NCBI GenBank assembly: GCA_008012115.1
Contig: SSEB01000010.1
Location: forward strand, 47,407 to 111,406
Source: Nevskiaceae bacterium
GTDB lineage: Bacteria; Pseudomonadota; Gammaproteobacteria; Nevskiales; Nevskiaceae
Reading direction: 5' to 3'
DNA: 64,000 bases
This document shows, in pieces, positions 1,812 to 55,984 of this stretch. Below the pieces are notes generated by a model. The model was given only the letters and a program-made list of their open reading frames with translations, had not been told where the DNA came from and searched no databases. The position numbers and the translations under genes are program-made. The stretch's first letter is position 1. Each line of letters opens with the position of its first letter.

Positions 1812-1921
1812 CACCCGCTCTGCCTCAACGAGCCCCGTTATTGGTTATTTTTTATTTAACGAATTTTAATTCGTTAAATAATTTATAACGATTTCCGCAG
1901 GCGATCCGACGAGAGCGGGTG
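1812..1921 (+). repeat. 110-bp GC-clamped AT-core dyad element, copy 1
   Basis: CACCCGCT at 1812-1819 and AGCGGGTG at 1914-1921 (perfect 11-bp inverted repeat CCACCCGCTCT/AGAGCGGGTGG at 1811-1821 and 1912-1922). Nearly pure A/T core. Perfect central palindrome TTAACGAATT-TT-AATTCGTTAA at 1856-1877, centred on the element midpoint. Lies between the convergent stops of recN and the His-rich protein gene. Confidence 0.85.
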
Positions 1922-1947
1922 GCCCCGCTGTCGCCTCCCAGCGACAC

Positions 1948-2298
1948 TCAGTCCTTCTTTTCGGAACTCTCGGCCGGCGTTTTCGACGGCGCGTGCACCT
2001 CGGAGGCGGCGTGCTTGACGTGCTCGGCGGCCGAATGCGCGGTGTGCCCCACGGCCTTGGCCGCCTTGTGCATGCCGTGGCCCGCCGCGTTGGCGCCCTT
2101 GGTGAGGGCATGACCGGTGGCGACGGCCGCGCTTTTCGCGGTGTGAACCACCACGTCCGCGCCACGCTCGACGCCCTGCCCGGCCTCGACCGCACCCTGC
2201 TTGATCTCCTGGCCGACCGTCTCGTCGGCGAACGCCGACGCGCAGACGCCGAGGCCGGCGATGAGCAGCAACCGCGAGGACACGATGTACTTGTTCAT
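1948..2298 (-). CDS. small secreted histidine-rich protein (hypothetical)
   Basis: Internal start MNKYIVSSRLLLIAGLGVCASAFA|DETV gives a signal peptide. The mature part has 9 His in repeated H-x-x-K/A-A contexts (GHALTKGANAAGHGMHKAAKAVGHTAHSAAEHVKHAASEVH). Its ATG overlaps the fur stop (ATGA at 2295-2298). Confidence 0.6.
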   Translation of the reverse strand: MNKYIVSSRLLLIAGLGVCASAFADETVGQEIKQGAVEAGQGVERGADVVVHTAKSAAVATGHALTKGANAAGHGMHKAAKAVGHTAHSAAEHVKHAASEVHAPSKTPAESSEKKD

Positions 2299-2750
2299 GA
2301 TCCACCTTTCTTGCGTGGCGCCGCGGCGGCGCCGCGGCAGTTGCTGCATTCGCCGTACATGATCAGGCTGTGCTCACGCAGCGAGAAGCCCAGCTCCTTG
2401 GCTTTTTCGTGCTGGCGACGCTCGATGACCGGGTCCTCGAACTCCACCACCAGACCGCACTTGATGCACACCAGATGGTCGTGATGATGGCCGCGCTCGA
2501 GTTCGAACACGGCATAGCCGCCCTCGAAATGGTGGCGCCGGACGAGGCCGGCGGACTCGAACTGCGTCAGCACGCGATAGACGGTGGCGAGACCGATGTC
2601 CTCGTGCAGCTCCAGCAGCTGGCGGTAAATGTCCTCCGCCGAAAGATGGCGCGCCGGGTTGTGCTCCAGCATCTCGAGGATCTTGAGTCGCGGCAGCGTG
2701 ACTTTGAGGCCCGCATTGCGGAGGTCTGAGGATTCCACGGGGACGACCAT
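2295..2750 (-). CDS. fur: ferric uptake regulator Fur
   Basis: LKVTLPRLKILEMLE...HLSAEDIYRQLL...IGLATVYRVLTQFESAGLV...HHHDHLVCIKCG...ECSNC. Start taken at MVVPVESS (ATG 2748-2750). Confidence 0.9.
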   Translation of the reverse strand: MVVPVESSDLRNAGLKVTLPRLKILEMLEHNPARHLSAEDIYRQLLELHEDIGLATVYRVLTQFESAGLVRRHHFEGGYAVFELERGHHHDHLVCIKCGLVVEFEDPVIERRQHEKAKELGFSLREHSLIMYGECSNCRGAAAAPRKKGGS

Positions 2751-2809
2751 GGTGCGATGGATTTTCGTTATTATCGCACTCCCTCCGAGATGTGGGCACC
2801 TCACTCCGC

Positions 2810-3256: not shown

Positions 3257-3262
3257 GCCGGT

Positions 3263-3538: not shown

Positions 3539-3539
3539 T

Positions 3540-3980: not shown

Positions 3981-3981
3981 C

Positions 3982-5945: not shown

Positions 5946-6301
5946 GGGGCCGATCCGGATTCGACGGCGACTGGAAAGCTGACGTGCATGCCGAGCTGCG
6001 GTGGATCTCGTAAAACTCTTCCGCAAACAAGCTAGTTGCGAACGACGCGAACTACGCCCTCGCCGCTTAATCCGGTGAGCGTCTGACCGGTTGGTGTTGA
6101 TACCGCCGAATCAGACGTCGACTCATATCAACTCGCGGTGAGGCAGGTCACTGGCCAATCCGCTAAAACCCTAAAGTGAATAAGCGGCGGCGATCCGTGC
6201 CCATCCGGAAGCCACCGACCAAAATCAATGAACGGGCTACGCATGTAGATCGAAGGACGGAAGGTTGTCGGACGGGGGTTCAATTCCCCCCGGCTCCACC
6301 A
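5946..6301 (+). ncRNA. ssrA: tmRNA (ssrA)
   Basis: 5' GGGGCCGATCCGGATTCGACG pairs with 3' CGGCTCCACCA, including the G3:U alanine identity pair. T-arm GGGGGTTCAATTCCCCC. Tag reading frame GCG AAC GAC GCG AAC TAC GCC CTC GCC GCT TAA at 6038-6070 encodes ANDANYALAA. Confidence 0.9.
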
Positions 6302-6379
6302 ACATGGTGATGCGACCAACCACCGCTGCCTAAGTCAGACTAGTAAAGTCAGTGACTTAGCGGCGGTGGTTTTTTATTG
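6296..6379 (+). repeat. attL-like direct repeat (tmRNA 3' end plus terminator)
   Basis: CCACCAACATGGTGATGCGACCAACCACCGCTGCC (6296-6330) recurs identically at 14729-14763. GACTTAGCGGCGGTGGTTTTTTATTG (6354-6379) recurs at 14787-14812 with one mismatch. Confidence 0.85.
6320..6377 (+). terminator. ssrA intrinsic terminator (compound hairpin plus T-run)
   Basis: CCACCGCTGCC pairs with GGCGGCGGTGG. Inner stem TAAGTCA/TGACTTA. Followed by TTTTTT. Confidence 0.8.
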
Positions 6380-7240: not shown

Positions 7241-8590
7241 ATGTCGGTTCTACAAGCCTTGAAACAGCTGCCCGACGGGCTGTTTTGGAGTGCCCCGCTT
7301 GCCTCCGATTCGGACTTCACGGCGGAGGATCCGCTGGCGCTCGACTACCTCGGGCAACAGGTCGGCCTTTGGTTGTTCCGCGGGTTCACGACCCGGACCA
7401 ATCGGGCCCAGAACTACGCGGTCGTTCTCTACGGGCTCGACCTCGCAGAGAAGGCCATTCAGCGCTTCGGCTATCCGGGTGACGATGAAACCCGAACGCG
7501 CCTCTTCGAGCGCTGGGAGCGCTTCTGGGCGCTCGCGACCCTTGAGTTTCGGAACGGCCAGCTATCGCGGGGCGATGAGGATGCGATGCGAGGCGTGCGC
7601 GGCGCCACCCGAGCTTGGTTTCCCGGCAGCAAACCTCTTCCCACTGACTTCGCACTGATCTCGCGTCAAAACGAGCTGGGTGGTCTGGGCGCGTATTTGT
7701 CGTCCCTCCGGGAGTACGGATTGGTCTTCCCCGGATCGCTGCGCGTCACTCCCGCGGCACGTGAGATTCTTGACTCCTTCTGGTCGGACAAAACCGAGCG
7801 CGACTGGAGCCGTCTATACGAGGACTACGCTCTCTCCGCTTTGGACTTCGATGCCAAGACCATCCCACGGTCGAACGGGCGACTCACGCTTGGCGGGTTG
7901 GGCGATCGGTCTCGTCTCTCCAGCCTCCGACACCGCAGTCGCGGCGAACAACAGCAGCGCTTGTGGAACGCCTTGTTCGTCGGCGCGCGAGATGGGTCGA
8001 CGCTGCCTTTGGCCGAATGTCTCATCGCCGCCCATGAAGCCGGCGTGGACGATCCTGAACAACTACTGGAAGGCATGCTCGCCGACCGGTGGCGGCCGCT
8101 GACTTCTGACAATCGAGGCAAGGTTGAAATCGCATTGCTGTTCGGCAGGGTTGCTCGGCTGCTGCTTCGGCGATTCGACCGCGCGTACGGCCACGTCGAC
8201 GAACACGGATGGGTAGCGGATTTCGCGGCGGTTGCCGCCGCGTGTTTTCCGAACAAGGAGGCTACGGAGCTGCGCAAAGCCTGCACGGCCCTACTGGAAG
8301 CGCCTGACGCTCGGCGTTTCGGGGGCCTGCAGTTCCACGGTCCGGATTTCCTGACGCTCCTTCGAAGGTTGGCTTCGTCGACAGCGACCGCTTCGTTGGA
8401 ACACATGCTCGCGTTCCATCGCGCGGTTCAGCGCACGCGCCGAGGTGGAGGTTCCTGGTTGCGAACCGAGCAGGGAAAGCTCGTGATGCAAGTCGCGGGC
8501 TATGCGGGATACACGACCGACTCGGAATTTCCGGGGCTGAAACTCAACGTCGTGCGGCAGCTTCTCGGCGACTTGGGGAAGCTCCCATGA
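7241..8590 (+). CDS. hypothetical protein, first gene of the island three-gene cassette
   Basis: 449-aa ORF with normal amino-acid composition. Its stop overlaps the next start (ATGA at 8587-8590). No catalytic motif recognisable by eye. Confidence 0.7.
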   Translation: MSVLQALKQLPDGLFWSAPLASDSDFTAEDPLALDYLGQQVGLWLFRGFTTRTNRAQNYAVVLYGLDLAEKAIQRFGYPGDDETRTRLFERWERFWALATLEFRNGQLSRGDEDAMRGVRGATRAWFPGSKPLPTDFALISRQNELGGLGAYLSSLREYGLVFPGSLRVTPAAREILDSFWSDKTERDWSRLYEDYALSALDFDAKTIPRSNGRLTLGGLGDRSRLSSLRHRSRGEQQQRLWNALFVGARDGSTLPLAECLIAAHEAGVDDPEQLLEGMLADRWRPLTSDNRGKVEIALLFGRVARLLLRRFDRAYGHVDEHGWVADFAAVAAACFPNKEATELRKACTALLEAPDARRFGGLQFHGPDFLTLLRRLASSTATASLEHMLAFHRAVQRTRRGGGSWLRTEQGKLVMQVAGYAGYTTDSEFPGLKLNVVRQLLGDLGKLP

Positions 8591-10740
8591 ATTTCGGGTC
8601 ATGGCGCGTCCTCGACCAGCTCCCGGCCGAGGAGCCGTGCCTGGGCGCGCTTTTCACGTCCTACAGCTTCGATCCCGCCTTCTTCGAGGAGCACGTTCTT
8701 CGAGCCGTGCTTCGACTCACTTCGGATCCGATCGAGCAGGCCGAGCGCTACCACCACGAGGCCAGACGAGCCCTGCAAGAAACCCCCGTCGTCGCCATCG
8801 TCGATGCCGGTGAGCGCCGACCCGGCCGGCGCCTGCCATTCGACCTACTCGAGGTCTCGGAGGCGGTATTCCATCCGAAATCCGTACTACTGCTCTATCG
8901 CAAATTCGCTAGGTTGCTCATCGGCTCGGGAAACCTCACATTCTCCGGCTACGGCGGCAACACCGAGCTGTTTCTGCGCACGGATCTGTCGTACACCAAT
9001 GCCACCGACGCTTCGATGCTGGCGGCATTCGACACCCACCTGGGACGAATACGCGCCTTGGTCAGGCATCCGGGGACGCAGTTCGATCTATTCCGCCAGG
9101 AGATGCGTCGGCGAATTCCCAATGCCGTCGCGGATCCGGTATCGCCGGCCCTTGCGCTTCTGGATTCGACCGGCGGACCCGTCATCCAGCAGTTGGCGGC
9201 GCTGCTGCCGGCGAACGCGGTCATCGAGTCTATCGGCATGCTCGCGCCGTTCTACGAACGAGACGACGCAGCGGAACTCGACGTGACTTCCGTGTTCGGG
9301 GCACTCGCGCCCCAAGCGGGTAAGGATGCGCTGCTCGATGTCGGTGTCGCGTGGGATAACCCGCAGGTCCATGCATCAAGCGCGTCGAGCCTGGAAGGCG
9401 GCCTGGGTCGCATCTGGACGTGGGCAACCGAGAAGGACGGGGCGCGCGTGCTCCAGCATATGGTTCCCACCGGCCTGGGTCCAAACACGCTCGCCTACGT
9501 CGATGACACCGGCCAGGGCCGCCGCGGTCCGCTTGACGAGGTGCAGGACGCCATCGAGCAGCGCAATCTGTGGGTCCAGCCGCCGCCGATTGCGTTCGCG
9601 CCCCGCAACGCGATTGCCGCTGCCGCGAAACGTTTTGCGGAAGTTCGCTTGTGGCTGCACCCCGCCACTCGACTCGACGAGGGGCGGCCCGTGCACCGGC
9701 CACTGCACGCGAAGCTGATGGTCGTTGCCTACCGTTCCGGTCGCACGCGTGAATCCTTGGTGATGCTGGGCTCGCCTAACATGTCGCGCCGAGCACTGCT
9801 CATGGGCGCCGGAACCGGCGCGGGCAACGTCGAGATCGCGGTCGCATTTCGCTTGGACTCGGTCGTTACCTTGCGCGACCTCGTCCCGGAGCTCGTTCAT
9901 GCCCCCGCCTCGGCATTCGAACTCAAGGAGCGGGACTTCCCCGAACCTGCGCGCAACTACGCCTTGGCAGTCGACCGCGCCGTTCACGACCCGACCGCAG
10001 GCTCGCTGGTGGTGAGCTGGTCACCGGCGGCATCCGACCTTCCGGCCTGGCGCCTGTCGTACGACGGCACCCAACTGGCGACCTCAACCTCGCCACCCGA
10101 TGCCCCGATCGTCGTTCCTGGATTCGTCCTGAAACCGTCGACGGCCGAAATCGTGCTCCACGTCGATGGGCGGGATTGTCCTGTGCCGATTCTCGTCACC
10201 GACCTCGTGGCATTGCCAGCCGCCCCTTCCGGACCCTCGATCGGACTCGACGAACTGCTGATGCTGCTCGGCCGAAGAATCGGCGCCGAGCGAGCAATTC
10301 AGATCGCAGAACGCCGCGAGCGCGACCCTGGCGGCAATGACGAGCTCGCTGCGATTTTCGGAGACGGCTTCGGTCCTACCGACGTCTTTCGTGCGTGGTG
10401 GTCTGTTGCCGACGATTTGAGAGACCCGAGCCTTTCGGTGCAGGGATTCCGACTTCGCCTCGAAGGCGCACTCGGCGCAGGAGCAGCATGGGCCTGCATG
10501 CTCGATGCAGTGAAGGCCAAACCCCTGACCCCGGAAGAAATTTGGTTCTACGGCGCCGAACTGCTCCGAACGTTGGGCGAGGTGGACATGCCACCCGCCG
10601 AAGATCGCGACGCCAAGGATGCTGTGTTGAAGACGTTCTGCGCCCGCGTGCGAGATGATCTGCGTTCTCTTGCCATCGATGCTGGCCCCCGACCCTGGGT
10701 AGAAAGAATCACGGCTTTCTATCGCGAGGCTCAGGCATGA
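8587..10740 (+). CDS. phospholipase-D-superfamily nuclease-like protein with two HxK...GSxN half-sites
   Basis: FHPKSVLLLY...LLIGSGNLT (aa about 96-117) and LHAKLMVVAY...VMLGSPNMS (aa about 374-398). This is the BfiI/NgoFVII-style HxK without the conserved Asp. A roughly 320-aa C-terminal extension is unassigned. Confidence 0.75.
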   Translation: MNFGSWRVLDQLPAEEPCLGALFTSYSFDPAFFEEHVLRAVLRLTSDPIEQAERYHHEARRALQETPVVAIVDAGERRPGRRLPFDLLEVSEAVFHPKSVLLLYRKFARLLIGSGNLTFSGYGGNTELFLRTDLSYTNATDASMLAAFDTHLGRIRALVRHPGTQFDLFRQEMRRRIPNAVADPVSPALALLDSTGGPVIQQLAALLPANAVIESIGMLAPFYERDDAAELDVTSVFGALAPQAGKDALLDVGVAWDNPQVHASSASSLEGGLGRIWTWATEKDGARVLQHMVPTGLGPNTLAYVDDTGQGRRGPLDEVQDAIEQRNLWVQPPPIAFAPRNAIAAAAKRFAEVRLWLHPATRLDEGRPVHRPLHAKLMVVAYRSGRTRESLVMLGSPNMSRRALLMGAGTGAGNVEIAVAFRLDSVVTLRDLVPELVHAPASAFELKERDFPEPARNYALAVDRAVHDPTAGSLVVSWSPAASDLPAWRLSYDGTQLATSTSPPDAPIVVPGFVLKPSTAEIVLHVDGRDCPVPILVTDLVALPAAPSGPSIGLDELLMLLGRRIGAERAIQIAERRERDPGGNDELAAIFGDGFGPTDVFRAWWSVADDLRDPSLSVQGFRLRLEGALGAGAAWACMLDAVKAKPLTPEEIWFYGAELLRTLGEVDMPPAEDRDAKDAVLKTFCARVRDDLRSLAIDAGPRPWVERITAFYREAQA

Positions 10741-13628
10741 GCGCTCGAAACCGCGAATGGCTGCGTACCTTTCTGCGCCTGGGAGCACGTGCGGAGAAAG
10801 ACGGTATTCCGATCGCGGACGTGGAGCGTCAGGAGGACACTGTCATCCGGGCGCTCGACATGCTCGACGACCGACCAGGCATCGTGCTTGCCGACGAGGT
10901 GGGAATGGGCAAGACCTACGAGGCGCTCGGAATCGCGGCCGCTGCACGCCATTCGAACCGACGCAGCCGAATCGTCGTCGTGACTCCGGGCCCCGACCTC
11001 AACACAAAGTGGTTTTCGGAGTTCTCTCGGTTCCGGGAGATGTACGACTTCGGTGACGACGTCGTTGCCGTCAGCAGCCTCGCGGAATTCGTTCACACCA
11101 TTCGCAAGCATCCCGTCGTGGTCGCGCCGGTGACGATGTTCCAGAGCGGCCGTGGTTCGGGCGCGCAGACATTCTTGCTATCGCTCTACTTTCATTGGAA
11201 GCAGCTCCACGGTCACACGGCGAATGCGATCATGGCGCGCTTTCGCGATGGCGCCCACGACCGCGTCGACGTCCGCACCGAGAAGTTTCTGGACGCCTTC
11301 ACCTTGGATCAACTCGAACCCCATCTTCAGGCGGCATTTCGTCGCGGACGGTCAGGTGGTGCCGCCGGGCTGGACGACCTGTATGACGCAGCCGGGTTGC
11401 AGGCATTCGACAACCAGGACGCCGTGCGCGCCGCGCTCTATCGAGCCCGATTTGTGCTGACGGGAAAATTGATGCCGATGCTCGATCTCCTGATCGTGGA
11501 CGAAGCGCACAAACTCAAGAATCCCGGATCGCTTCGGACGGACGCTATGCGCCGCGTCTTCCACAGGCGGTTCCGCAAGGCGTTGTTCTTGACGGCGACG
11601 CCGTTCCAGCTCGACGTTGCCGAATTGCGGGAAGTGTTCCGCATCTTCGCCGGCGCCGAGGACGCGCCCAAAGACCTCGAAAGCCAGGTGGAGGAATTGC
11701 TCGCTGCGGTTGCCGACTATCAAGCGCAGTACGAGGCGTTTCAGCAGACATGGTGCGCGCTGGATCCTGCCGTGGCGGCCGAGTTCCGCACGCTTTACGA
11801 CAACCAGCCTACCGCCCTCGAAGCCATCGAGGTGCCTTCGCTGCAGCTGATTACCAAGCAGGTGGCTGCCCTGAAGGCTCTCAAGACCCAAGCGATCGAG
11901 CCCGGCTTCCGCAAGTGGATGATCCGGAGCCTGCGCGAGGACAAGCGGACCTATCGTGCGCATCTGCGAAGGCCCATCCTCGCGGCGGGGGCCGGGGCGT
12001 TCCCCTTCTTGATCTATGAGCGCTTCATCGCCGAGCTGTTTCGGAGGCAGCGCCAGACGCACAAGGCGGCGGTCGAAATCAACATGGTCTCGTCATTCGC
12101 GGCGGCGCGGCAGGGAACGATCCTGTCCACGACGGATGGCATACCTGCGGAAGCCGAGGTTTACCGGCAACTGCTGCGCGAGGTCCTCGGCGACATCGAA
12201 ATGTGCGGCCATGACCATCCCAAGATTTCCGACGCTATCACCGATGCCCTGGATGCCGCTGATCGTGGCGAGAAGACTCTGATCTTTTGCTCGCGTGTCG
12301 CAACGCTTGAGCAGCTGCGGCGCGAGCTGGACGCAACATGGGAGTCCAGAATCCTGGAGCGGTGGCAACGCGTCTACCCTGGGACCGGCGCGACCGACAT
12401 CTTCGATACCCGGGAAGACGACGACAAACGACAACGCGGCCGGCATTCACTGCTGCAGGCGCGATTCCATCGTCCCCAGGATGCTCTCTATCTCGCATTG
12501 CGAGAGCCCTACTTGCGTACCATCGTCTCCACTGCGGAATGGGCACTCGCGCACCTGCCTGCCGTCGTGGAGGAGGCCAATCGCATCCTGGCCGGACTGC
12601 GGCTCGGCAAGACGTCGGCGGAGCGTCTCGATTACCAGGTCGCCAGACGCTGCGTGGAGCAAGCCGCTGCGCGGCTATCCGCCTCTGCAGGGGCAATTCC
12701 CGCTGCCGAGCGAGATGCGGTTGACCATCTGCTCAACGTGGACTACGTCAAGCTCGGCCTCGATCTGGCGCACGATGAATTCGAGAACGATTCGATCGGG
12801 ACCGAGGCTCCTCAGTGGCATATCACCGAGCGTGTTGCCCAGACAGTCGTCGGTACCCCGGGTTCGATCTGGGAGAGGCACACTGACCTCCTCGGCGCCC
12901 TTTCGCCAGTGTTGCGCGTCAGGGTCGTCGAACAGCTTGCGCGATACCTAACCTACAAGCAGGTTCCGTTTCTGGCGGATCTGCTCACGGAGGCCAAGGC
13001 CGCCGGCGCCCCCCTCGATCCAGTGGAATCGTCCAGCGTGCTGGATCTCATGCCCACCTTCTGGGAATCGGCTCCGGGCCGACGGTGGTTGGAGCAGATC
13101 GGGGCCTTTCTGCGCTATTTCCTCCAGCGCGATCCTCGCCAGCAACTCGAGATCCTGGACGGGCCCATCAAGACCGGGGATTTCGCTCGGCACACGCGCG
13201 ATGGCGAAAGCCGCGAGCGGCTCCGGGAAGCCTTCAACACCCCGCTCTATCCCATGATCCTGATCGCGAACGAAGTCATGCAGGAGGGACTCGACTTGCA
13301 CAAGCATTGCCGTCGGATCGTGCACCACGATCTCGTCTGGAATCCGGCGCAGGTCGAGCAGCGGATTGGGCGCATCGACCGCCTGGGATCGCTGACCAGC
13401 CGCCTCCGAAAGAACGGCTCCGACATCACGCTGGACGTGCTGTACCCGGTCATACGCGGCACGATCGACGAACGTCTGTTCCGAACCGTGAAGACCAGGG
13501 AAAAGTGGCTCGAATTCCTGCTGGGCGCGCCGCCGAATTTCTCCGACTACAGCTTTACCGACGAGGTGCCTCCCCCGCTACCTGAAAAGTTGAGTGCGGA
13601 CCTGGCGGTCGATCTCGGGCCGCGCTGA
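10737..13628 (+). CDS. SNF2-family (DEAH) helicase/translocase
   Basis: Motif I LADEVGMGKTYEA, motif II LLIVDEAHKLKN (about 11491-11520), motif III LFLTATPFQL, C-terminal lobe LIANEVMQEGLDLHKHCRRIVHHDLVWNPAQVEQRIGRIDRLGS. Start overlaps the upstream stop (ATGA at 10737-10740). Confidence 0.9.
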   Translation: MSARNREWLRTFLRLGARAEKDGIPIADVERQEDTVIRALDMLDDRPGIVLADEVGMGKTYEALGIAAAARHSNRRSRIVVVTPGPDLNTKWFSEFSRFREMYDFGDDVVAVSSLAEFVHTIRKHPVVVAPVTMFQSGRGSGAQTFLLSLYFHWKQLHGHTANAIMARFRDGAHDRVDVRTEKFLDAFTLDQLEPHLQAAFRRGRSGGAAGLDDLYDAAGLQAFDNQDAVRAALYRARFVLTGKLMPMLDLLIVDEAHKLKNPGSLRTDAMRRVFHRRFRKALFLTATPFQLDVAELREVFRIFAGAEDAPKDLESQVEELLAAVADYQAQYEAFQQTWCALDPAVAAEFRTLYDNQPTALEAIEVPSLQLITKQVAALKALKTQAIEPGFRKWMIRSLREDKRTYRAHLRRPILAAGAGAFPFLIYERFIAELFRRQRQTHKAAVEINMVSSFAAARQGTILSTTDGIPAEAEVYRQLLREVLGDIEMCGHDHPKISDAITDALDAADRGEKTLIFCSRVATLEQLRRELDATWESRILERWQRVYPGTGATDIFDTREDDDKRQRGRHSLLQARFHRPQDALYLALREPYLRTIVSTAEWALAHLPAVVEEANRILAGLRLGKTSAERLDYQVARRCVEQAAARLSASAGAIPAAERDAVDHLLNVDYVKLGLDLAHDEFENDSIGTEAPQWHITERVAQTVVGTPGSIWERHTDLLGALSPVLRVRVVEQLARYLTYKQVPFLADLLTEAKAAGAPLDPVESSSVLDLMPTFWESAPGRRWLEQIGAFLRYFLQRDPRQQLEILDGPIKTGDFARHTRDGESRERLREAFNTPLYPMILIANEVMQEGLDLHKHCRRIVHHDLVWNPAQVEQRIGRIDRLGSLTSRLRKNGSDITLDVLYPVIRGTIDERLFRTVKTREKWLEFLLGAPPNFSDYSFTDEVPPPLPEKLSADLAVDLGPR

Positions 13629-14728: not shown

Positions 14729-14812
14729 CCACCAACATGGTGATGCGACCAACCACCGCTGCCCAAACCTGACGCTGCGCGTCACGGACTTGGCGGCGGT
14801 GGTTTTTTATTG
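14729..14812 (+). repeat. attR-like direct repeat with orphan ssrA-type terminator
   Basis: Identical 35-mer at 14729-14763. A hairpin (inner stem TGACGC/GCGTCA) plus GGCGGCGGTGGTTTTTT follows at 14787-14808. No + strand gene reads into it. Confidence 0.85.
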
Positions 14813-19552: not shown

Positions 19553-19662
19553 CACCCGCTGTTGCCGTGGAGATCGGATAATTTGTTGTTAATTATTAAT
19601 TGAAAATTAATTCATTAAATAATTAAAAACAAACCAAACCGCCTTTGGCGCGACAGCGGGTG
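19553..19662 (+). repeat. 110-bp GC-clamped AT-core dyad element, copy 2
   Basis: CACCCGCTG at 19553-19561 and CAGCGGGTG at 19654-19662. AT core ATAATTTGTTGTTAATTATTAATTGAAAATTAATTCATTAAATAATTAAAAAC. Begins 24 nt after the pspC stop. Confidence 0.85.
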
Positions 19663-20854: not shown

Positions 20855-21020
20855 GGCGGCATCTCCCCCGGGGCCGGTATCTTTTCGGCCATTCTGCCGC
20901 AAAAGCGCGGGCATGCGCAGGCGCTTCGTGGCAAGCACGGCGCGATTCACTCACAATGCCGAAAACGGATCATGCAAAGGGCGCACGCGGCCCGGCGCGT
21001 GGCAGAACACGGAGGAGCGC

Positions 21021-23391: not shown

Positions 23392-23501
23392 CACCCGCTC
23401 TCGCGGTTTTGGCCTGGAGGATTGTTAAAAAATGTATATCAAATCAAAATTCATTAAACTATTTATCACATCTTCCCTGCTGATTCCGGTGCTAGCGGGT
23501 G
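23392..23501 (+). repeat. 110-bp GC-clamped AT-core dyad element, copy 3 (overlaps the DUF1329 start)
   Basis: CACCCGCT at 23392-23399 and AGCGGGTG at 23494-23501. The core aligns without gaps to the other copies (for example offsets 60-69 TCATTAAACT versus TCATTAAATA in copy 2). Begins 28 nt after the RND stop. Confidence 0.8.
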
Positions 23502-36375: not shown

Positions 36376-36485
36376 CACCCGCTCGGATGCGTTTCCCTAC
36401 GGAATTTGTTTTATTTTATTTATCATTTTTAAAAACGATAAATAAATATTAACTACAGGAGATCGCCCAACACCCAGAGCGGGTG
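36376..36485 (+). repeat. 110-bp GC-clamped AT-core dyad element, copy 4
   Basis: CACCCGCTC at 36376-36384 and GAGCGGGTG at 36477-36485. The near-perfect 30-bp palindrome TTATTTATCATTTTT|AAAAACGATAAATAA (36416-36445) is centred exactly on the element midpoint. Lies between ffs and dnaX. Confidence 0.85.
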
Positions 36486-39617: not shown

Positions 39618-40213
39618 GGCGTCGCGGGCGCGGCCGACTGCAGCAACTGCTGGATCGCGTCGATGCGCGACTGCGCCAGCGCGGCGCCGTCGATATCGCC
39701 GCTGGCGCTGCGCGCGTCGCGGATCACGCGCCAGTTTTCCTGCTCGACGTAAACATTGCCGCGCGCCAGGCTGCTGGCTTTCTGCGCGACGCTGATCGCC
39801 TGGTCGTAATTCTTCTGCAGCAGGTAGGTGCCGGCCAGCGACGACCAGACGAAGTAGTTGCGCGGTTCGATGCGCTGGGCGCGCTCGAGCGCCGCCGCGG
39901 CCTGGTCGTAGCGACCGGCACTGCGCGCGGCCTGCGCCTGGCGCAACAGCGACAGCACCGCGCCGCCGCTGATTTCGTCCGCGGATTTCGGATAGTTGGG
40001 CAGCGCCTTGGGTGGCGGCAGCGGCATGGCCTGCGGCGACTGGCTTTCCGGCACGATCACCGGCGCAGGCGTGCCGCTGGGTGCGGCCGGCAACGGACGC
40101 GACACCGGCGGCGCGGACGGCGGCTGGTTGGTCTCTCGACGGCCGTGTACGGTCTGGCAACCGGCGGCGACGACAGCCAGGGCCAGAATGGCCAGCTTGA
40201 TGCCTTGCTTCAT
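39614..40213 (-). CDS. TPR-containing outer-membrane lipoprotein, LpoP-like candidate PBP1B partner
   Basis: Lipobox LAVVAAGC. Pro-rich linker (PPSAPPVSRPLPAAPSGTPAPV...PLPPPKALP). TPR-like repeats (RYDQAAAALERAQRIEPRNYFVWSSLAGTYLLQKNYDQAI). 4-nt overlaps with mrcB upstream and dinG downstream. Confidence 0.6.
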   Translation of the reverse strand: MKQGIKLAILALAVVAAGCQTVHGRRETNQPPSAPPVSRPLPAAPSGTPAPVIVPESQSPQAMPLPPPKALPNYPKSADEISGGAVLSLLRQAQAARSAGRYDQAAAALERAQRIEPRNYFVWSSLAGTYLLQKNYDQAISVAQKASSLARGNVYVEQENWRVIRDARSASGDIDGAALAQSRIDAIQQLLQSAAPATP

Positions 40214-42510
40214 TTAAAAATTCCCTTGAGCCAGTCCACCGCCGAATCCACCGGCGACGCCGATTTGGCGCAGGGCGCGGCGTCGTTGGGCGCGTAACCC
40301 TGCATGTACGGCACGCTGATCGCGCCGGTGCAGCCTTCATCGGCGCGCAGGCCGGTCACCGGATCGGTGAGCTGTTCGACGACATCGGCCGGCGGCGTCA
40401 CGTCGAGCCCGCGCACGTTGATGTCGTGCATGACCTTGGTCCAGATTTGCAGGGCGCCGCTGGCACCGGTCAGGCCCATCGGCTTGTAGTCGTCACGGCC
40501 GACCCAGACCACGGCGACGCGGTCGGCGCCAAAGCCGGCGAACCAGCTGTCGCGCAACTCGTCGGTGGTGCCGGTCTTGCCGGCCAGCACGACATCGGGG
40601 GAGATGACGTTATAAACGCTGCGCGCGGTGCCCAGCGTCATCACGTGGCGCATCGCCCAGGTGGTGAGATACACCGGCCCTTCCGGCAGCGTCTGCTTGA
40701 CCTTGATCGGATAGCGCGACAGCGGCTGGCCTTCCTTGGTCTCGACCTCGCGGATCGCCGACAGCGGCGACTGGTAGCCGCTGGCCGCGAGCGTGGCATA
40801 CATCTGCGCCACTTCGACCGGCGCGATATCGACCGCACCCAGGAAGATCGACGGCACCGCGGCGGCATCGCCGGTGTAGCCGGCGGCATGCAGGGTTTCC
40901 ATCACCGCCGGCGGCCCGATCTGCAGACCCAGGGCTACCGTCGGCAGGTTGTAGGACTGCGCCAGCGCCATATACAGCGGCTGCGGACCGTGCAACTGCT
41001 TGTCATAGTTGTGCGGCTCCCACACATCCTTGTTGGGCAGCGTCAGCTGGATCGGCTCATCCGGCAGGATGGTGTGCAGGTTGTACTGCTGCGGCCGCGA
41101 CAGCGCGGTGAGATACAGGAACGGCTTGGCCAGCGAGCCGATGGAGCGGCGCGAATCCAGCGCGCGGTTGAAGCCCGGGAACCGCGTCTCGCGGCTGCCG
41201 ACCAGCGCCAGCACCTCGCCGCCATCGACACTGGTGACCACGCCGGCGGCCTCCAGCGTATCCGGCTTCATGCGGCGCTGCTGCTCGAGTTGCGGCAGGC
41301 CGTCGGTGATTTCCTTCTCCAGCGCTTCCTGCGTCCGCGGGTCCAGCGTGGTGAAGATGCGCAGGCCGTCGTTGGTCAGATCGCTTTCCTGGTACTGGCC
41401 CTTGAGCTGGCGTTTGACCAGATCGACGAAGGCCGGATAGCGATCGACGCCGCCGCCCTTGCCGGCCAGGCCCAGCGGTCGTTCGATGGCGCTCTTGTAC
41501 TCGTTGTCGTCGATCAGGCCTTCGTCGCGGAAAATCTGCAGCACCAGGTCGCGCCGCGCCTTGGCGCGCGCCTCGTTGCGCCGCGGGTTGTAGAACGACG
41601 GCCCTTTGACCAGACCCACCAGCAGTGCGATCTCGTGCGAACGCAGCTCGTTGAGCGGCTTGTTGAAATAGAACTGCGCACCCAGGCCGAAGCCATGCAC
41701 GGCGCGATTGCCGTCCTGCCCGAGGTGCACCTCGTTCAGGTAGGCCTCCATGATCTCGTCCTTGGAGTAATGCGCCTCCAGCAGCAGCGCCATGAAGACT
41801 TCCTTGAACTTGCGATCCCAGGTCTGGGCGCTGTTGAGGAAGAAATTCTTGACCAGCTGCTGCGTCAGCGTGCTGCCACCCTGCACCACGTGACCGGCAC
41901 GCAGGTTGGCGAAGGCGGCGCGGAAGATGGCCTTGGGACTGACGCCGTAATGGCTGTAGAAGCTGCGGTCCTCGACCGCCACCAGACCCTTGGTCAGCAT
42001 CGGCGGCACGTCCGACAACTTGACCAGCACGCGGTCCTCGCCCTGCTGCGGGTAGATGCTGCCGATCAGCAGCGGATCCAGGCGGACGATGTCCATCGGC
42101 TTGCCGGTGGTCGCGTCATTGACCCCGGTGATGCCCGCGGGCGCCAGGCGCAGCGACAGCTTGAGCGCGGCCTGCTCACCGTCCCAGAACTTGAAATCGC
42201 GCGTGTTGATCAGCGCCTGGTCGCGCGTGATCTCGAAGGTGCCGGGACCGTCCGGCTCGGCCATGCTGCGGTAGCCCAGGCGCTCCAGCTCGTGCCGCAG
42301 CGTATCGGCGTCGAGGTTCTGGCCTGGATACAACTCCAGCGGCGCGGAATAGACCTGGGCCGGCAGGGCCCAGCGTGCGCCGGCGAAGCGCGCGCGGACC
42401 TCATGATCGAGGCCGACCAGGTAGATGGAGAACACGACCACGCCGGCGCTGAGCAGAATCAGCAACGCGGCGACGATCAGGGAGCGGAATCGGGTCACGG
42501 AGAAAGTCAT
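40210..42510 (-). CDS. mrcB: penicillin-binding protein 1B (bifunctional glycosyltransferase/transpeptidase)
   Basis: N-terminal TM and UB2H-like region (ARWALPAQVYSAPLEL...LRHELERLGY). GT51 motifs AVEDRSFYSHYGV and GGSTLTQQLVKN. TP motifs SIGSLAKP (SxxK) and KTGTT. Confidence 0.9.
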   Translation of the reverse strand: MTFSVTRFRSLIVAALLILLSAGVVVFSIYLVGLDHEVRARFAGARWALPAQVYSAPLELYPGQNLDADTLRHELERLGYRSMAEPDGPGTFEITRDQALINTRDFKFWDGEQAALKLSLRLAPAGITGVNDATTGKPMDIVRLDPLLIGSIYPQQGEDRVLVKLSDVPPMLTKGLVAVEDRSFYSHYGVSPKAIFRAAFANLRAGHVVQGGSTLTQQLVKNFFLNSAQTWDRKFKEVFMALLLEAHYSKDEIMEAYLNEVHLGQDGNRAVHGFGLGAQFYFNKPLNELRSHEIALLVGLVKGPSFYNPRRNEARAKARRDLVLQIFRDEGLIDDNEYKSAIERPLGLAGKGGGVDRYPAFVDLVKRQLKGQYQESDLTNDGLRIFTTLDPRTQEALEKEITDGLPQLEQQRRMKPDTLEAAGVVTSVDGGEVLALVGSRETRFPGFNRALDSRRSIGSLAKPFLYLTALSRPQQYNLHTILPDEPIQLTLPNKDVWEPHNYDKQLHGPQPLYMALAQSYNLPTVALGLQIGPPAVMETLHAAGYTGDAAAVPSIFLGAVDIAPVEVAQMYATLAASGYQSPLSAIREVETKEGQPLSRYPIKVKQTLPEGPVYLTTWAMRHVMTLGTARSVYNVISPDVVLAGKTGTTDELRDSWFAGFGADRVAVVWVGRDDYKPMGLTGASGALQIWTKVMHDINVRGLDVTPPADVVEQLTDPVTGLRADEGCTGAISVPYMQGYAPNDAAPCAKSASPVDSAVDWLKGIFK

Positions 42511-42581
42511 GCAGCGCGAAATGATACAGGCTTGACCGCGCCCGGACCGTGCGGTTCGGCGTGAAAGCGAGAAAAAATCCC

Positions 42582-42691
42582 CACCCGCTCCGGGTCTTGG
42601 CCGCCGTGCATTTGTTTTATTTTATATATTTAATTTTAATTCAGTAAATTAAATATAACATCATTTTTGCCCCCAGTGATGACAGCGGGTG
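42582..42691 (+). repeat. 110-bp GC-clamped AT-core dyad element, copy 5
   Basis: CACCCGCT at 42582-42589 and AGCGGGTG at 42684-42691. Central AATT-TT-AATT (42632-42641) sits on the exact midpoint. Core offsets 30-39 TTTGTTTTAT are identical to copy 4. Lies in the divergent mrcB / DUF47-pit intergenic region. Confidence 0.85.
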
Positions 42692-43509: not shown

Positions 43510-44516
43510 TGGGCACCCTGCACATCGCCATGGAGATCGTGATCTTCCTGGTGGCGCTGGCGCTGCTGTTCGATTTCATGAACGGCTTCCACGACTCCGC
43601 CAACTCCATCGCCACCATCGTCTCCACCGGCGCGATGAGCCCGCAGAAGGCGGTGGTCTGGGCGGCGTTCTTCAACTTCATCGCCTTCCTGTTCTTCGGC
43701 TTTCATGTCGCCACGACCGTCGGCAAGGGCATCATCGACCCGAGCATCGTCGATCATCACGTGGTGTTCGGCGCGCTGGTCGGCGCCATCAGCTGGAACA
43801 TCATCACCTGGTATTACGGCATCCCCTCCAGTTCCTCGCACGCGCTGGTGGGCGGCCTGGCGGGCGCGGCGGTGGCCAAGGGCGGCACCGGCACCCTGGT
43901 CGCGGCCGGCTTTCTCAAGACCGCGAGCGCCATCGTGCTGTCACCGCTGCTGGGTTTCATCCTCGGCGCCCTGCTCATGGTCGGCGCAGCCTGGAGCGGC
44001 TCGCTGTTCACCGCACGCAAGGCCGACCGCGGTTTCAAGTACCTGCAGTACGTTTCGGCCGCGCTCTACAGCCTCGGGCACGGCAGTAACGATGCGCAGA
44101 AAACCATGGGCATCATCTGGATGCTGCTGATCGCGGCGGGCCTCACCGGCCCGCAGGACTCGCTGCCGTTCTGGGTGGTGCTGAGCTGCCAGACCGCGAT
44201 GGGCCTGGGCACGCTGTTCGGCGGCTGGCGCATCGTCAGGACCATGGGCATGAAGATCACCAAGCTAAAACCGGTGGGCGGCTTCTGTGCCTCGGCCAGT
44301 GGCGCGGCGACGCTGTTCCTGGCCACCAGCCTGGGCGTGCCGGTGTCCACCACGCACACCATCACCGGGTCCATCGTTGGCGTGGGCGCCGCACGCAACG
44401 TCAACGCCGTGCGCTGGGGCATCGCAGGGAATATCGTCTGGGCCTGGGTGCTCACCATCCCCGCCTCGGCCTTCATCGCCGGCGTGGCCTGGTGGCTGGG
44501 ACAGCGCTACTTCTGA
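43509..44516 (+). CDS. pit: inorganic phosphate transporter, PiT family
   Basis: LLFDFMNGFHDSANSIATIVST and second repeat LGHGSNDAQKTMGII...TTHTITGSIVGVG. 335 aa. Confidence 0.9.
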   Translation: MGTLHIAMEIVIFLVALALLFDFMNGFHDSANSIATIVSTGAMSPQKAVVWAAFFNFIAFLFFGFHVATTVGKGIIDPSIVDHHVVFGALVGAISWNIITWYYGIPSSSSHALVGGLAGAAVAKGGTGTLVAAGFLKTASAIVLSPLLGFILGALLMVGAAWSGSLFTARKADRGFKYLQYVSAALYSLGHGSNDAQKTMGIIWMLLIAAGLTGPQDSLPFWVVLSCQTAMGLGTLFGGWRIVRTMGMKITKLKPVGGFCASASGAATLFLATSLGVPVSTTHTITGSIVGVGAARNVNAVRWGIAGNIVWAWVLTIPASAFIAGVAWWLGQRYF

Positions 44517-44641
44517 GACACCGACCCCAGTTTCGGGGGCATCGCCGGGGGCATCGTTCGCTCTGGGCCTGGGTGCTTACCATCCCCGCCTCGGCCTTCA
44601 CTGCCGGCGTGGCCTGGTGGCTGGGACAGTGCTATCTCTGA
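44437..44641 (+). repeat. tandem duplication of the pit 3' terminus (two 80-bp copies with 125-bp period)
   Basis: The 80 bp at 44437-44516 (the last 77 nt of pit coding sequence plus TGA) recur at 44562-44641, also ending TGA, with 6 mismatches. Weaker similarity extends about 20 bp further upstream. Confidence 0.85.
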
Positions 44642-44658
44642 ATCACCGGCTCATCGTC

Positions 44659-53280: not shown

Positions 53281-54390
53281 CCGCCGCATCACCACGCTGC
53301 CTGCGGAATAACCCGCGCCAAAGGCGCACAGCACCGCGGCATCGCCGGTCACCAGGTCGTCGTGATACATGTGGAAGGCGATCACCGAACCGGCCGAGCT
53401 GGTGTTGGCGTAACGGTCGAGAATGACCGGCGCCTCCTGTACGGAAGGCTCGCGTCCCAGCACCTTCTTCGATATCAGCTGGTTCATCGACAGATTGGCC
53501 TGGTGCAACCAGAAGCGCTTCACGCCGTTGGGTTCGATGCCGAGATCGCCGAGGTGCGTGGTGATCAGCTCCGACACCAGCGGCACGACTTCCTTGAACA
53601 CCTTGCGGCCTTCCTGGTTGAACAACACGTCGTGCCACTCACGCGGCGGCTGCTCGCTGGCGTTGAGGAAGCCGAAGTTGTTGCGGATGTTGTTGGAGAA
53701 CTGGGTCTGCAGACGGGTGCCCAGCACCTCGAAGCCGTCACGCCCTTCCTTCAGCGGTTCCACGAGAACCGCCGTGGCGGCATCGCCGAAGATGAAATGG
53801 CAGTCGCGATTACGGAAATTGAGATGCCCGCTGCAGATTTCCGGGCTCACCACCAGGGCCGCGCGCGCGCTGCCGTTGCGCACCGCATCCACCGCCGCCT
53901 GGATGCCGAAAGCCGCGGAGGCGCAGGCCACGTTCATGTCGTAGGCATAGCCCCCGGTGCCCAGCAGCTGCTGCAGTTCCACCGCGATCGCCGGGTACGG
54001 GCGCGCCAGGTTGGAGCAGGCCACCAGGACCGCATCCACGTCCTCGGCCTTGCGGCCGGCGCGTTGCAGTGCCTCGCGGGCCGCCGCCGCGCCCATTTCG
54101 GCGAGGATCGACGGCTCGTCGTTGCCGCGACGACGGATCAGCGGGCGCATCACGTCCGGATCGAGAATGCCGGACTTGTTGACGACGTTGCGCGCCTGGA
54201 TGCCCGAGGCCTTGACGATGAATTCGCTGGAGGAATGCGCCAGCGGTTGCACCGTGCCGGCCGCGATGGCCTCGGCATGGCGCGCGTTGAACTTGTCGAC
54301 GTAGGCGTTGAAAGCGACCACCAGCTCGTCATTGCTGATGGATTCCGGCGGCGTGTAAAGGCCGGTACCGGTGATGGCGACGCGCGTCAT
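53275..54390 (-). CDS. beta-ketoacyl-ACP synthase III family protein
   Basis: Start MTRVAITGTGLYTP. Active-site Cys in DMNVACASAAF. C-terminal WLHQANLSMN and ANTSSAGSV (His/Asn). The upstream 174 codons of the tracked ORF are rejected. Confidence 0.85.
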   Translation of the reverse strand: MTRVAITGTGLYTPPESISNDELVVAFNAYVDKFNARHAEAIAAGTVQPLAHSSSEFIVKASGIQARNVVNKSGILDPDVMRPLIRRRGNDEPSILAEMGAAAAREALQRAGRKAEDVDAVLVACSNLARPYPAIAVELQQLLGTGGYAYDMNVACASAAFGIQAAVDAVRNGSARAALVVSPEICSGHLNFRNRDCHFIFGDAATAVLVEPLKEGRDGFEVLGTRLQTQFSNNIRNNFGFLNASEQPPREWHDVLFNQEGRKVFKEVVPLVSELITTHLGDLGIEPNGVKRFWLHQANLSMNQLISKKVLGREPSVQEAPVILDRYANTSSAGSVIAFHMYHDDLVTGDAAVLCAFGAGYSAGSVVMRRL

Positions 54391-54428
54391 GGGGGTCGTC
54401 CCTGGGAGTCTGGTCTTGAATCGCGATT

Positions 54429-55841
54429 TTAGCCGACGGCGGGCCAACCGGCCCGCAGCAGGGCCTCGCGCAGGACTTCGCGCGTTTCCGGCTCGCGGCG
54501 GATCGTCAGGTGCGCGCCCTGGTACCAGGTCACTGGCACGCCCCAGTGCTGCGACAGCTGCACCGGGTGCTGGGGCACGACGATGCGGTCGGCGGCGCCG
54601 CCGAGAATCAGCAGCCGGTCCTTGTCGAGCAGCGGCGCCCGCGCCAGCGGCGACACAGGCGCGAGAATCTGCCGGTAACGCGACTCGCTGACGCCGCGCG
54701 CCGTGAAATAACGCAGCTGCGCCGGCGGCATGAACCGCCATAACGCGGTGGCGAAATCCACCACCGGAATGGCGGCGACGACAAAATCGAGCCCCGCGTC
54801 GTAGGTCGCCAGCAGGCTGACGTTGTAGCCGCCCAGGCTGACGCCGAAGGCACCGATGCGCGGCCTCTCCTCCTGTTGGCGGATCCAGGCCAGCGTACGG
54901 CGCAGATCCCAAAGGGCATGCGCCTCGGCATGGGCGAGGTCGAGCACATCACCGTCCAGGAAATGATCGCCCGAGCGCAGGCCGACCCGGCGCGGGCCGT
55001 GCAGCGGCAGCACCGGCTGCACGATGTTCAGCCCCAGGCGGGCGTGCAGCCAGCGCGGGTGGAACAGGCCCAGGTCCAGCCACGGCATGCCCATGCGGTA
55101 ACCATGCACGCAGAGCAGCCAGGGACGCGGCGGGCCGGGATGGCGCAGCACGCGCACCACGCAGCGGTTGTTGGTCACCTGGCTCGTCCAGGCGGCGGCG
55201 CCCGGCAGGCTCTCGTCGGGGATGTAGCCGCTGTCCCAGCTCAGTTCCTCGTAGCGGTAGCCGAAGATCTGGCGCTCGCGGGCGGTGACGCCCTCCGGCG
55301 GCGGTGGCTCGGCGTGGTAGGCGGCCGGGTTGGCATCCCAGCCCCGCTCGCGGATCAGGGCATCCAGCTTCAGGGCGTCCTCGCACATGCGGTCGGCATC
55401 GTCGCCGGACGGCAGATCGATGCCGGCGACGAAATAGCCGAGCATCGCCTCGTCGAGGGCGGACTTGGCATCCATCGCCAGCGACAGTTCCGGTGCCGGC
55501 GCGCCCGCCGGCAGCGGCTCGGCGGTGAGCGCGACTCGGCCGGCCACCAGGAAACTGGCAACACAGCCGAAGAAAGCGACAAAAGCCAATGCCGAGGGAC
55601 CGAACACGAACAGGAGCAGTGCGATGAGGGCGCCGACCACGCTGGCCAGCGACATGTAGCTGGTCACGCGCGGATCGCCCGGCATCAGCAGCAGCGACAC
55701 ACCGGTGCCGAGCAGCACGCCGCCGGGCAGCAGCGCCCAGATCAGCCAGTGGCCGTCGCCGCTGGCCAGCAACCAGTACAGCCCGGCCAGGATCGGCACG
55801 GCGCTCAGCGTCTCCCAGCGTTTCGGTCGAGGAATCTGCAT
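54429..55841 (-). CDS. membrane-anchored alpha/beta hydrolase (hypothetical)
   Basis: Four N-terminal TM helices, then a hydrolase fold with nucleophile elbow GAFGVSLGGY. Start taken at ATG 55841 (MQIPRPKRW). The tracked GTG at 55877 lies inside repeat copy 6. Confidence 0.65.
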   Translation of the reverse strand: MQIPRPKRWETLSAVPILAGLYWLLASGDGHWLIWALLPGGVLLGTGVSLLLMPGDPRVTSYMSLASVVGALIALLLFVFGPSALAFVAFFGCVASFLVAGRVALTAEPLPAGAPAPELSLAMDAKSALDEAMLGYFVAGIDLPSGDDADRMCEDALKLDALIRERGWDANPAAYHAEPPPPEGVTARERQIFGYRYEELSWDSGYIPDESLPGAAAWTSQVTNNRCVVRVLRHPGPPRPWLLCVHGYRMGMPWLDLGLFHPRWLHARLGLNIVQPVLPLHGPRRVGLRSGDHFLDGDVLDLAHAEAHALWDLRRTLAWIRQQEERPRIGAFGVSLGGYNVSLLATYDAGLDFVVAAIPVVDFATALWRFMPPAQLRYFTARGVSESRYRQILAPVSPLARAPLLDKDRLLILGGAADRIVVPQHPVQLSQHWGVPVTWYQGAHLTIRREPETREVLREALLRAGWPAVG

Positions 55842-55874
55842 CGTCAGGGAATCCGGCTGTGCCTCGTTCGGTGC

Positions 55875-55984
55875 CACCCGCTCTCGGCGTTACCCGCGGG
55901 CAGACTGTTATTAAATATATATCGTTTGTATTTTCTATCTACAAAATATAACGACTTTACTGGACCATGCACCCGGAGCGGGTG
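55875..55984 (+). repeat. 110-bp GC-clamped AT-core dyad element, copy 6
   Basis: CACCCGCTC at 55875-55883 and GAGCGGGTG at 55976-55984. The core aligns without gaps (offsets 40-49 AATATATATC versus copy 3 AATGTATATC; offsets 70-79 AAATATAACG versus copy 5 AAATATAACA). The centre is degenerate. Ends 18 nt after the stop of the 98-aa membrane protein gene. Confidence 0.8.

Follow-up and report, generated by a model that had tools for sequence, protein, structure and literature searches.

What are the short units of exactly 110 bp that recur between genes in a GC-rich stretch of 64,000 nucleotides from a Nevskiaceae bacterium (contig SSEB01000010.1; the whole stretch analysed is called the window here)? 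An earlier note on this DNA had described six of them, each bounded by an 8-mer and its reverse complement, which we call the clamps. By pattern search, CACCCGCT-N94-AGCGGGTG gave six exact matches in the window and none in 100 dinucleotide-preserving shuffles, which were used as the chance level. The 8-mer or its complement occurs 13 times in the window, and 12 of these 13 occurrences belong to the six pairs; a search of all other spacings between 70 and 130 nt gave no further pair in the window. Thus, the six exact pairs are as claimed, and the 8-mers are not paired at random spacings. When three clamp mismatches were allowed, one extra match appeared in the window (35006), which is GC-rich and a chance match. 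The six copies align without gaps, again as stated earlier, their flanks do not align, and the strings quoted for offsets 30-39 and 50-59 agree with the sequence. We conclude that the 110-bp units are a true homologous repeat family, far beyond chance. The family is an undescribed, old, vertically inherited palindromic repeat and is carried by one Nevskiaceae group. As to its nature, we tentatively favour, short of real confidence, an origin from a miniature inverted-repeat transposable element (MITE) and a present state as a dyad DNA site read sequence-specifically by a clade-specific factor.

Anatomy of the element

Each half of the element begins with a terminal box, ACCCGCY (mostly ACCCGCT, often CACCCGCTCT), which is followed by a 24-nt spacer, an inner box, TTGTTATwAAATAT, and the A/T-rich centre. 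Written as a half-site consensus, this is CACCCGCTct, about 20 variable nt, TTGTTATwAwwTATTTAT and the A/T-rich centre, and each copy consists of two such half-sites. The perfect inverted termini are 8-10 bp long. For comparison of the copies, the element was divided into clamps, shoulders (offsets 11-30 and 81-100), inner boxes (offsets 31-47 and 64-80) and centre (offsets 48-63). In pairwise comparison of the window copies, the clamps were 100% identical (GC content 0.75) and the shoulders 31% (GC 0.61), which is the random level; the inner boxes reached 68% (GC 0.11) and the centre 53% (GC 0.19). The average GC content of the window is about 0.65. GTT at offsets 33-35 and AC at offsets 77-78 are invariant in all six window copies.

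Mirror pairing between the two halves is about 100% at offsets 1-8 and 33-35 and is high up to offset 37. In the shoulders (offsets 11-30), it is 0.07-0.57, and cognate left-right shoulder duplexes were no better than mismatched pairs (p=0.27). These values rule out the shoulders as a stem, and without complementary shoulders there is no conservation of a full-length hairpin. At the centre (offsets 48-55), mirror pairing is about 50%, the level expected for pure A/T; therefore, a cruciform at the midpoint is not conserved. Thus, two bipartite half-sites form a dyad, and the unit is not a continuous hairpin. The earlier description, a dyad with paired ends, paired centre and unpaired shoulders, is borne out for the ends (to which the inner boxes are to be added) and for the shoulders, and fails for the centre. 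The accompanying argument that both clamps lie on the same face of the helix is loose: 110/10.5 gives a half-integer number of turns, and the centre-to-centre distance of the clamps is 102 bp, about 9.7 turns.

Several other ideas about the anatomy were dropped. A defined orientation was abandoned because nhmmer strand preferences were inconsistent between orthologues; that all six copies are given as + strand is uninformative, since the unit is a near-perfect dyad. The shoulders gave no matches of at least 14 nt elsewhere in the window, and the idea that they are guides or copies of other DNA was rejected. An ARG-box-like GAAwwTTAATTC at the centre is present in some window copies only and is no family feature. 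Solo half-sites, half elements or a long composite transposon were not found in the window or in the related loci searched.

The element matches no catalogued family that we searched, as the earlier note had supposed. In Rfam, no match overlapped any copy at the gathering score or at E<=10, and five related loci gave no match on their copies at the gathering score. Plasmids and viral contigs contained no match to the element, and literature searches gave nothing on repeats in this Nevskiaceae clade and, for the 8-mer, only primer sequences.

Copies in relatives and constraint at orthologous sites

Related loci, which are labelled with L-numbers, were fetched around dnaX homologues and one DUF1329 homologue and were searched with a profile built from the element copies (nhmmer). 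We found 14 further non-redundant copies in five other genomes of a Stenotrophobium-like clade, which gives 20 copies in six genomes; these 14 come from two or three chosen loci, and the duplicate contigs L120, L122, L123, L126 and L133 repeat sequences. The length is 110 bp in 17 of the 20 copies, and the other three (108, 108 and 109 bp) are all from the L125 lineage; in every other lineage the length is constant. Thus, the strict length claimed from the window survives 14 more copies, with exceptions from one lineage. In a variable-gap scan of genome contigs (16 fixed bases, 29 allowed lengths), chance matches were spread flat over 96-124, and among the matches listed were two true 110-bp copies (L036 and L113), both from one Stenotrophobium metagenome-assembled genome. 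A metagenome scan with an exact 21-base pattern gave no match, such samples being apparently absent from that collection, and with an inner-box pattern the sole match was an unrelated palindrome in a contig of 21% GC. The density in the window is one copy per about 11 kb; if this is representative, there would be a few hundred copies per genome.

Three sites were compared between lineages, as follows.

ffs-dnaX site: window copy 4, L121:9812, L119:9680, L125:9865 and L129:9415
PhoU-PBP1B site: window copy 5, L121:3608, L125:3914 and L129:3488
MMPL-DUF1329 site: window copy 3, L121:21241-21350 and L132:9962-10070

Orthologous placement persists across genus-level divergence. The earlier note had looked to relatives for filled versus empty sites; in this comparison, all three sites were filled in every carrier lineage with a comparable site (four or five lineages), and no polymorphism was seen. 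Solimonas loci (GC 0.68-0.70) contain no copy and no A/T-rich stretch whatever, and four loci of 13-22 kb from the S. rhamnosiphilum clade contain no copy. In the PhoU-PBP1B spacer of the S. rhamnosiphilum clade, there is an A/T-rich stretch of about 55 bp with a weak match to the core (E 4e-4 to 0.07); it has no proper clamps and is preceded by the conserved TTTTGCGCT.

L118:2580-2690, A/T-rich relic
L124:2530-2625, A/T-rich relic
L127:2604-2695, A/T-rich relic
L128:2579-2688, A/T-rich relic

This stretch is probably what remains of a copy after loss of the clamps and of part of one spacer; the absence of the element from this clade is a loss or decay and not an empty site. In a neighbour-joining tree of DnaX, the S. 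rhamnosiphilum clade is sister to L119/L121 and is therefore nested among carriers; L125 and L129 branch earlier, and Solimonas lies outside. The absence of copies from Solimonas and the order of this tree show that the family arose after the Solimonas split and passed down vertically, with loss or decay in one nested clade.

The distance between the clamp and GTT is 24 nt in 34 of 34 arms from five of the six element-bearing genomes, the exception being the L125 genome. The flanking spacers around orthologous copies vary from about 28 to 216 bp between relatives. Between L119 and L121, DnaX is 94% identical and fourfold sites are 83% identical; in the copy at the dnaX site, the clamps are identical at 20/20 positions, the core at 46/50 and the shoulders at about 60%. 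The best alignment of the right shoulder of this pair has one insertion and one deletion that cancel each other, which is suggestive of indels offset under a length constraint. Although the shoulders of this pair are more diverged than fourfold sites, we make no claim of hypervariability because fourfold sites are under compositional constraint and another pair is identical at 109/110 positions. The centre is A/T-rich without sequence conservation in a 65% GC genome; thus, composition and not sequence is selected there. The clamps stay perfect beside spacers that are saturated with substitutions and whose GC content has drifted close to that of the genome. Free spacers, fixed lengths and the A/T centre together point to selection on the boxes, their spacing and the composition of the centre at individual loci, and these features indicate a pattern unlike the decay of dead transposon copies.

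In the L125 genome, each of the three copies, which occupy three orthologous loci, has the ends GACCCGCC...GGCGGGT, and in five of the six arms the clamp is separated from GTT by 23 nt, which is equivalent to loss of T8 and A103. The sixth arm, which lies within the DUF1329 reading frame, has an equal clamp through substitution and retains 24 nt. According to the DnaX tree, this dialect (ACCCGCC, 23 nt) is the derived state. That one end state was reached by different mutations where coding forbids a deletion suggests base-specific reading of the clamp and of its distance from the inner box, and the dialect argues against mere maintenance of pairing. Compensation of the total length in this lineage was considered and dropped because the third copy is 109 bp and not 108 bp.

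Genomic context and reuse of individual copies

The window carries a transfer-messenger RNA (tmRNA) gene and a signal recognition particle (SRP) RNA gene. All six copies are intergenic, in convergent, tandem and divergent contexts.

Copy 1, 1812..1921: between the convergent recN (110-1792, + strand) and an unnamed open reading frame (ORF; 1948-2349, - strand)
Copy 2, 19553..19662: 24 nt past the stop of a PspC-domain gene (18968-19528, + strand), with a TetR-family gene downstream
Copy 3, 23392..23501: 28 nt past the stop of an MMPL/RND gene (20853-23363, + strand); its right half is the 5' end of the DUF1329 gene
Copy 4, 36376..36485: 40 nt downstream of the SRP RNA gene (36526-36622, - strand) and 80 nt upstream of dnaX (34670-36295, - strand)
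Copy 5, 42582..42691: between the divergent PBP1B (40210-42510, - strand) and PhoU_div/PHO4 (from 42883, + strand) genes
Copy 6, 55875..55984: 18 nt past the stop of an unnamed ORF (56003-56299, - strand), upstream of a peptidase S9 gene (54429-55877, - strand)

Copy 1 (nhmmer E=3e-24) lies 19 nt from the recN stop codon and 26 nt from that of the unnamed ORF. Five of the six copies begin 18-40 nt behind the 3' end of a gene or RNA, and because this leaves no room for a separate terminator after the upstream 3' end, these five must be transcribed. Since convergent, tandem and divergent placements all occur, the context is indifferent to transcription.

Copy 3 overlaps the start of a gene.

23416..23434 (+ strand), interior of copy 3: Shine-Dalgarno-like GGAGGA at 23416-23421 in the left spacer and the ATG of the DUF1329 gene at 23432

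The DUF1329 gene (23432-24784) begins at element offset 41, and offsets 41-110 encode MYIKSKFIKLFITSSLLIPVLAG(A). The coding sequence of the signal peptide, MYIKSKFIKLFITSSLLIPVLAGA, extends over the core, the right spacer and the clamp. An M-x10-I-T-x8-A-G/S-A N-terminus is present in 9 homologue protein clusters, in which ATAAC (read as I-T) and GCGGGTG (read as A-G-A) are kept 8 codons apart. Relatives without the element (Solimonas and others) have ordinary, unrelated GC-rich signal peptides of similar length. Copy 3 supplies the ribosome-binding site, the start codon and the signal peptide of the DUF1329 protein. Thus, the earlier statement that no copy contains an ORF does not apply to copy 3, in which the ATG and the signal peptide lie inside the element. 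Rickettsia palindromic elements (RPEs) are palindromic repeats that can lie in frame in protein-coding genes and be translated (PMC10969869), and copy 3, as an in-frame translated repeat, is a parallel. However, RPEs insert within many ORFs of an A/T-rich genome, whereas the 110-bp element overlaps a gene at only one of 20 sites and there forms the N-terminus instead of being inserted internally.

In L119 and L121, the right clamp is followed directly on its 3' side, at two non-orthologous sites, by another palindromic unit, a GC-rich mini-element of about 122 bp (CCGACACGG...CCGTGTCG).

L119:9790-9911, mini-element
L121:3718-3840, mini-element (also in L120 and L122)

The L121 dnaX site is empty of the mini-element, and the comparison shows a precise insertion. 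In L121, a further GCGGGTG stands after the mini-element, as a 7-bp target duplication would. The window contains no copy of the mini-element, and Rfam gave no match to it. Because it was inserted after the right clamp, the clamp is a target for another small mobile element.

Around copy 5, about 20 nt directly upstream of the PBP1B start (42511-42530; CCTGTATCATTGCGCGCTGC in the PBP1B orientation) are near-invariant in seven aligned lineages, and the remainder of the upstream spacer is not conserved in them; the probable reading of this block is a conserved leader or regulatory site. A duplicate of the final 87 nt of PHO4, stop codon included (44437-44523), lies 125 bp downstream (44562-44648), with 91% identity. 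Elsewhere in the window, the 3' end of the tmRNA gene together with the following sequence (6296-6379) is directly repeated 8433 bp further on (14729-14812), also with 91% identity. The interval of about 6.4-14.7 kb has a GC content of 0.62-0.645, contains none of the six 110-bp copies and resembles a genomic island integrated into ssrA. Three large ORFs lie within it (7241-8590, 8587-10740 and 10737-13628); they include a weak PLD-like match (under the Pfam cut-off) and an SNF2 helicase, and in PADLOC they correspond to the candidate defence systems PDC-M27B/C and ZacB/C. A scan of two ORFs that flank the island gave no integrase.

Possible roles and comparison with known systems

From the observed anatomy, length constraint, deep orthology, dialect and nested-clade loss, we infer the existence and nature of a binding factor and the action of its complex as follows. 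The element was probably in origin a MITE, that is, two transposon ends fused together; the terminal box and the subterminal A/T box, which stand at a fixed distance and are mirrored, make this origin plausible. At present, the copies would be double-stranded DNA sites read by a clade-specific protein. Their two halves face each other over an A/T-rich, sequence-free centre, which may permit easy bending or melting. A dimeric or tetrameric factor would contact the outer and the inner box of each half; this factor may be transposase-derived, and a nucleoid protein possibly helps on the A/T-rich part. Bending of the centre would bring the halves together into one complex of about 110 bp. Because the units lie 18-40 nt behind gene ends, they are also transcribed, and the hairpin that the GC end-stem forms in the transcript would be a by-product that may be recruited locally, as in copy 3. 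The collective decay in the S. rhamnosiphilum clade is the pattern expected from loss of a trans-acting partner. Of the roles suggested in the earlier note, an architectural site, a gyrase site and an RNA module are still hypothetical. On the whole, the results speak more for a double-stranded DNA site that is read sequence-specifically than for a conserved hairpin.

Several points weigh against this proposal. The binding factor is hypothetical. Complementary variants at the outer pairs do not discriminate, because a palindrome suits a symmetric protein and a hairpin alike. The sample comprises only 20 copies from 6 genomes, 14 of them fetched around a few chosen loci. A decayed clamp is tolerated in L121:21241 (on the coding side) and in both L129 copies; thus, not every copy is under strict selection. 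A joint shift of hundreds of sites to a new dialect is left without explanation. Motifs for IHF, H-NS, Fur, the ARG-box, DnaA and the extended -10 element were not enriched over composition-matched shuffles; for example, the IHF consensus WATCAANNNNTTR had a mean best mismatch number of 1.56 per core, compared with 1.72 in the shuffles. Moreover, all copies have stable predicted folds (-27 to -44 kcal/mol; z of -2.4 to -8.0 against shuffles).

Folds so much better than those of shuffles would suit an RNA element like REP or ERIC, which is co-transcribed and forms a hairpin from the GC end-stem and an A/U inner stem; this hairpin would block 3' exonucleases, attenuate read-through or mark processing, with the A/U loop as a target of RNase E or Hfq. 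The position of five of the six window copies behind 3' ends agrees with such an element, as do complementary variants at the outer stem pairs (1/110 C-G, G-C and T-A; 8/103 T-A and C-G; 9/102 C-G and G-C), and copy 1 is the sole candidate terminator between two convergent genes. However, copy 5 and its orthologues sit between divergent gene starts, and the non-complementary shoulders would form a 22x22-nt internal loop. There is no U-tract after the stem: no intrinsic terminator was called within copies 1 and 4, the two that were scanned, and the right flanks have no consistent T-run. A hairpin does not require exact loop lengths or the identical clamp change in the three L125 copies, and no Rfam family was matched. 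We regard an RNA element as unlikely.

It is likewise improbable that the element is a purely selfish MITE, non-autonomous and without host function, in which the conserved features (8-10-bp terminal inverted repeats and a subterminal A/T site bound by a DNA-bending host protein, as in IS10) are the needs of a transposase elsewhere in the genome. At the ends of IS10/Tn10, a terminal box is combined with a subterminal box at a fixed distance, and the two boxes of each half-site resemble such transposon ends. Confinement to one clade with loss in a nested clade, and the insertion of another mini-element at the clamp, also fit. Bacterial MITEs are in general small and intergenic, with terminal inverted repeats, an A/T-rich interior and stable transcript hairpins (PMC10969869), and the 110-bp element has these features. 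Among them, Correia/NEMIS elements of Neisseria are similar in being 100-150 bp long, homogeneous in length, intergenic and co-transcribed, with terminal inverted repeats, and they can carry protein-bending sites or promoters or fuse to ORFs (general features in PMC10969869). In contrast to these, the 110-bp element has no TA or other duplication and no similarity to Correia, its copies are highly diverged within a genome instead of near-identical, and they are kept with intact ends at orthologous sites across genus-level divergence.

Of the marks of a MITE, a short (<500 bp) dispersed unit with terminal inverted repeats is present (six copies in 64 kb and 14 in five genomes), and target-site duplication and evidence of mobility are not. 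The copy flanks contain no direct repeat, in agreement with the earlier note; their sole signal is a weak extension of the palindrome by G-C, and old copies may have lost any target-site duplication. No young, near-identical copies were found within a genome, the identity of the spacers being at random level, and there are no solo ends or half elements. No partner insertion sequence was seen in the window or the related DNA, which were searched for copies and half-sites, their proteins not exhaustively, and no transposase was found among 17 window proteins scanned against Pfam. Furthermore, the ssrA island (6.3-14.8 kb), which appears to be acquired, is free of the six copies, there is no insertion polymorphism at three sites in four or five lineages, and perfect clamps beside saturated spacers are unlike decaying dead copies. 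Without young copies, polymorphism or duplications, and with perfect clamps and deep orthology, the element appears to behave at present neither as an active nor as a dead MITE.

BIME-1/RIP (RIB) of E. coli consists of two inverted REP units flanking an IHF site and is a target of specific insertion sequences. Like BIME-1, the 110-bp element is about 100 bp long, intergenic, often in a 3' untranslated region and dispersed in many copies. Both have inverted GC-rich arms around an A/T centre, which in BIME-1 binds a bending protein, and both are targeted by other elements. However, the arms of the 110-bp element are not palindromic REP hairpins but have 8-10 conserved terminal bases, the remainder being a free spacer of fixed length, and the element has no IHF enrichment or sequence similarity to BIME-1 and belongs to another taxon.

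A folded single-stranded DNA site for a structure-specific recombinase or HUH enzyme (attC-like or REP/RAYT-like), with two stems, unpaired spacers of fixed length and little weight on sequence outside the stems, is very unlikely. Integron attC sites (57-141 bp) are likewise imperfect dyads with conserved short boxes and geometry and free sequence between them, and the conserved stems and fixed-length free segments of the 110-bp element resemble this logic. The mini-element, which lies exactly 3' of GCGGGTG and ends in GCGGGTG, has a pattern that is also found in elements transposing as single strands. However, the inner boxes are GTTAT...ATAAC, an order opposite to that of the attC boxes R''/R' (RYYYAAC ... 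GTTRRRY). Neither the R''-L''...L'-R' arrangement nor a cassette array or a nearby intI was found, and the copies are 4-18 kb apart among recN, dnaX, PBP1B and similar genes. The flanking and related-locus neighbours are ordinary chromosomal genes, without integrase or cassettes; the search for integrases and HUH enzymes did not extend to the other window ORFs. For a fold that is to be recognised, an internal loop of 22x22 nt is very large, and the L125 dialect points to base-specific reading.

The REPIN/RAYT system consists of REP doublets that are inherited vertically in a clade, are thought to co-evolve with a single-copy protein and are lost together with it. The 110-bp element shares with REPINs a unit of about 100 bp, two inverted conserved ends and vertical inheritance in a clade. 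In REPINs, however, the stem is a 20-25-nt REP and the whole doublet pairs, and populations cluster around a master sequence; the arms of the 110-bp element do not pair, and its copies do not cluster in this way. A palindromic unit of 20-40 nt with pairing doublets, as in REP, BIME and REPIN, is absent, since a single arm is not self-complementary. No RAYT gene was identified in the window, whose ORFs were not exhaustively scanned for one.

Least likely of all is a portable promoter or operator cassette with the A/T core as a bidirectional promoter, an UP-element or an operator of a global regulator. In its favour, a gene start follows five of the six copies, copy 5 separates two divergent genes, the distance of 80 nt from copy 4 to dnaX is conserved in two relatives, and the S. 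rhamnosiphilum clade retains only the A/T-rich part at the PBP1B site. Against it, sigma-70-like promoter hits were sporadic, kept no conserved register and did not occur in copies 1-4; copy 1 has a gene end on either side, and the clamps and fixed spacers would have no role.

The proposal of a dyad DNA site can be carried further. The elements may be the cis half of a clade-specific, genome-wide cis/trans system, in which several hundred dyad sites and one dedicated factor, possibly a domesticated transposase, would organise or insulate the chromosome, with co-evolving dialects (ACCCGCT with 24 nt and ACCCGCC with 23 nt) and joint loss as in the S. rhamnosiphilum clade. We consider this extension doubtful.

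Small intergenic palindromic repeats such as REP, BIME, ERIC and MITEs are common, and the reason why the host keeps them is rarely clear. In the present family, the signal of constraint is unusually clean: boxes, spacing and composition of the centre are kept at the same loci, and the remainder drifts. The family also shows how a repeat can be recruited as a translation start and secretion signal, and how its end box can become the target of another mobile element. The parallel change of box and spacing in one lineage, and the loss of the set in a nested one, predict a specific partner protein.

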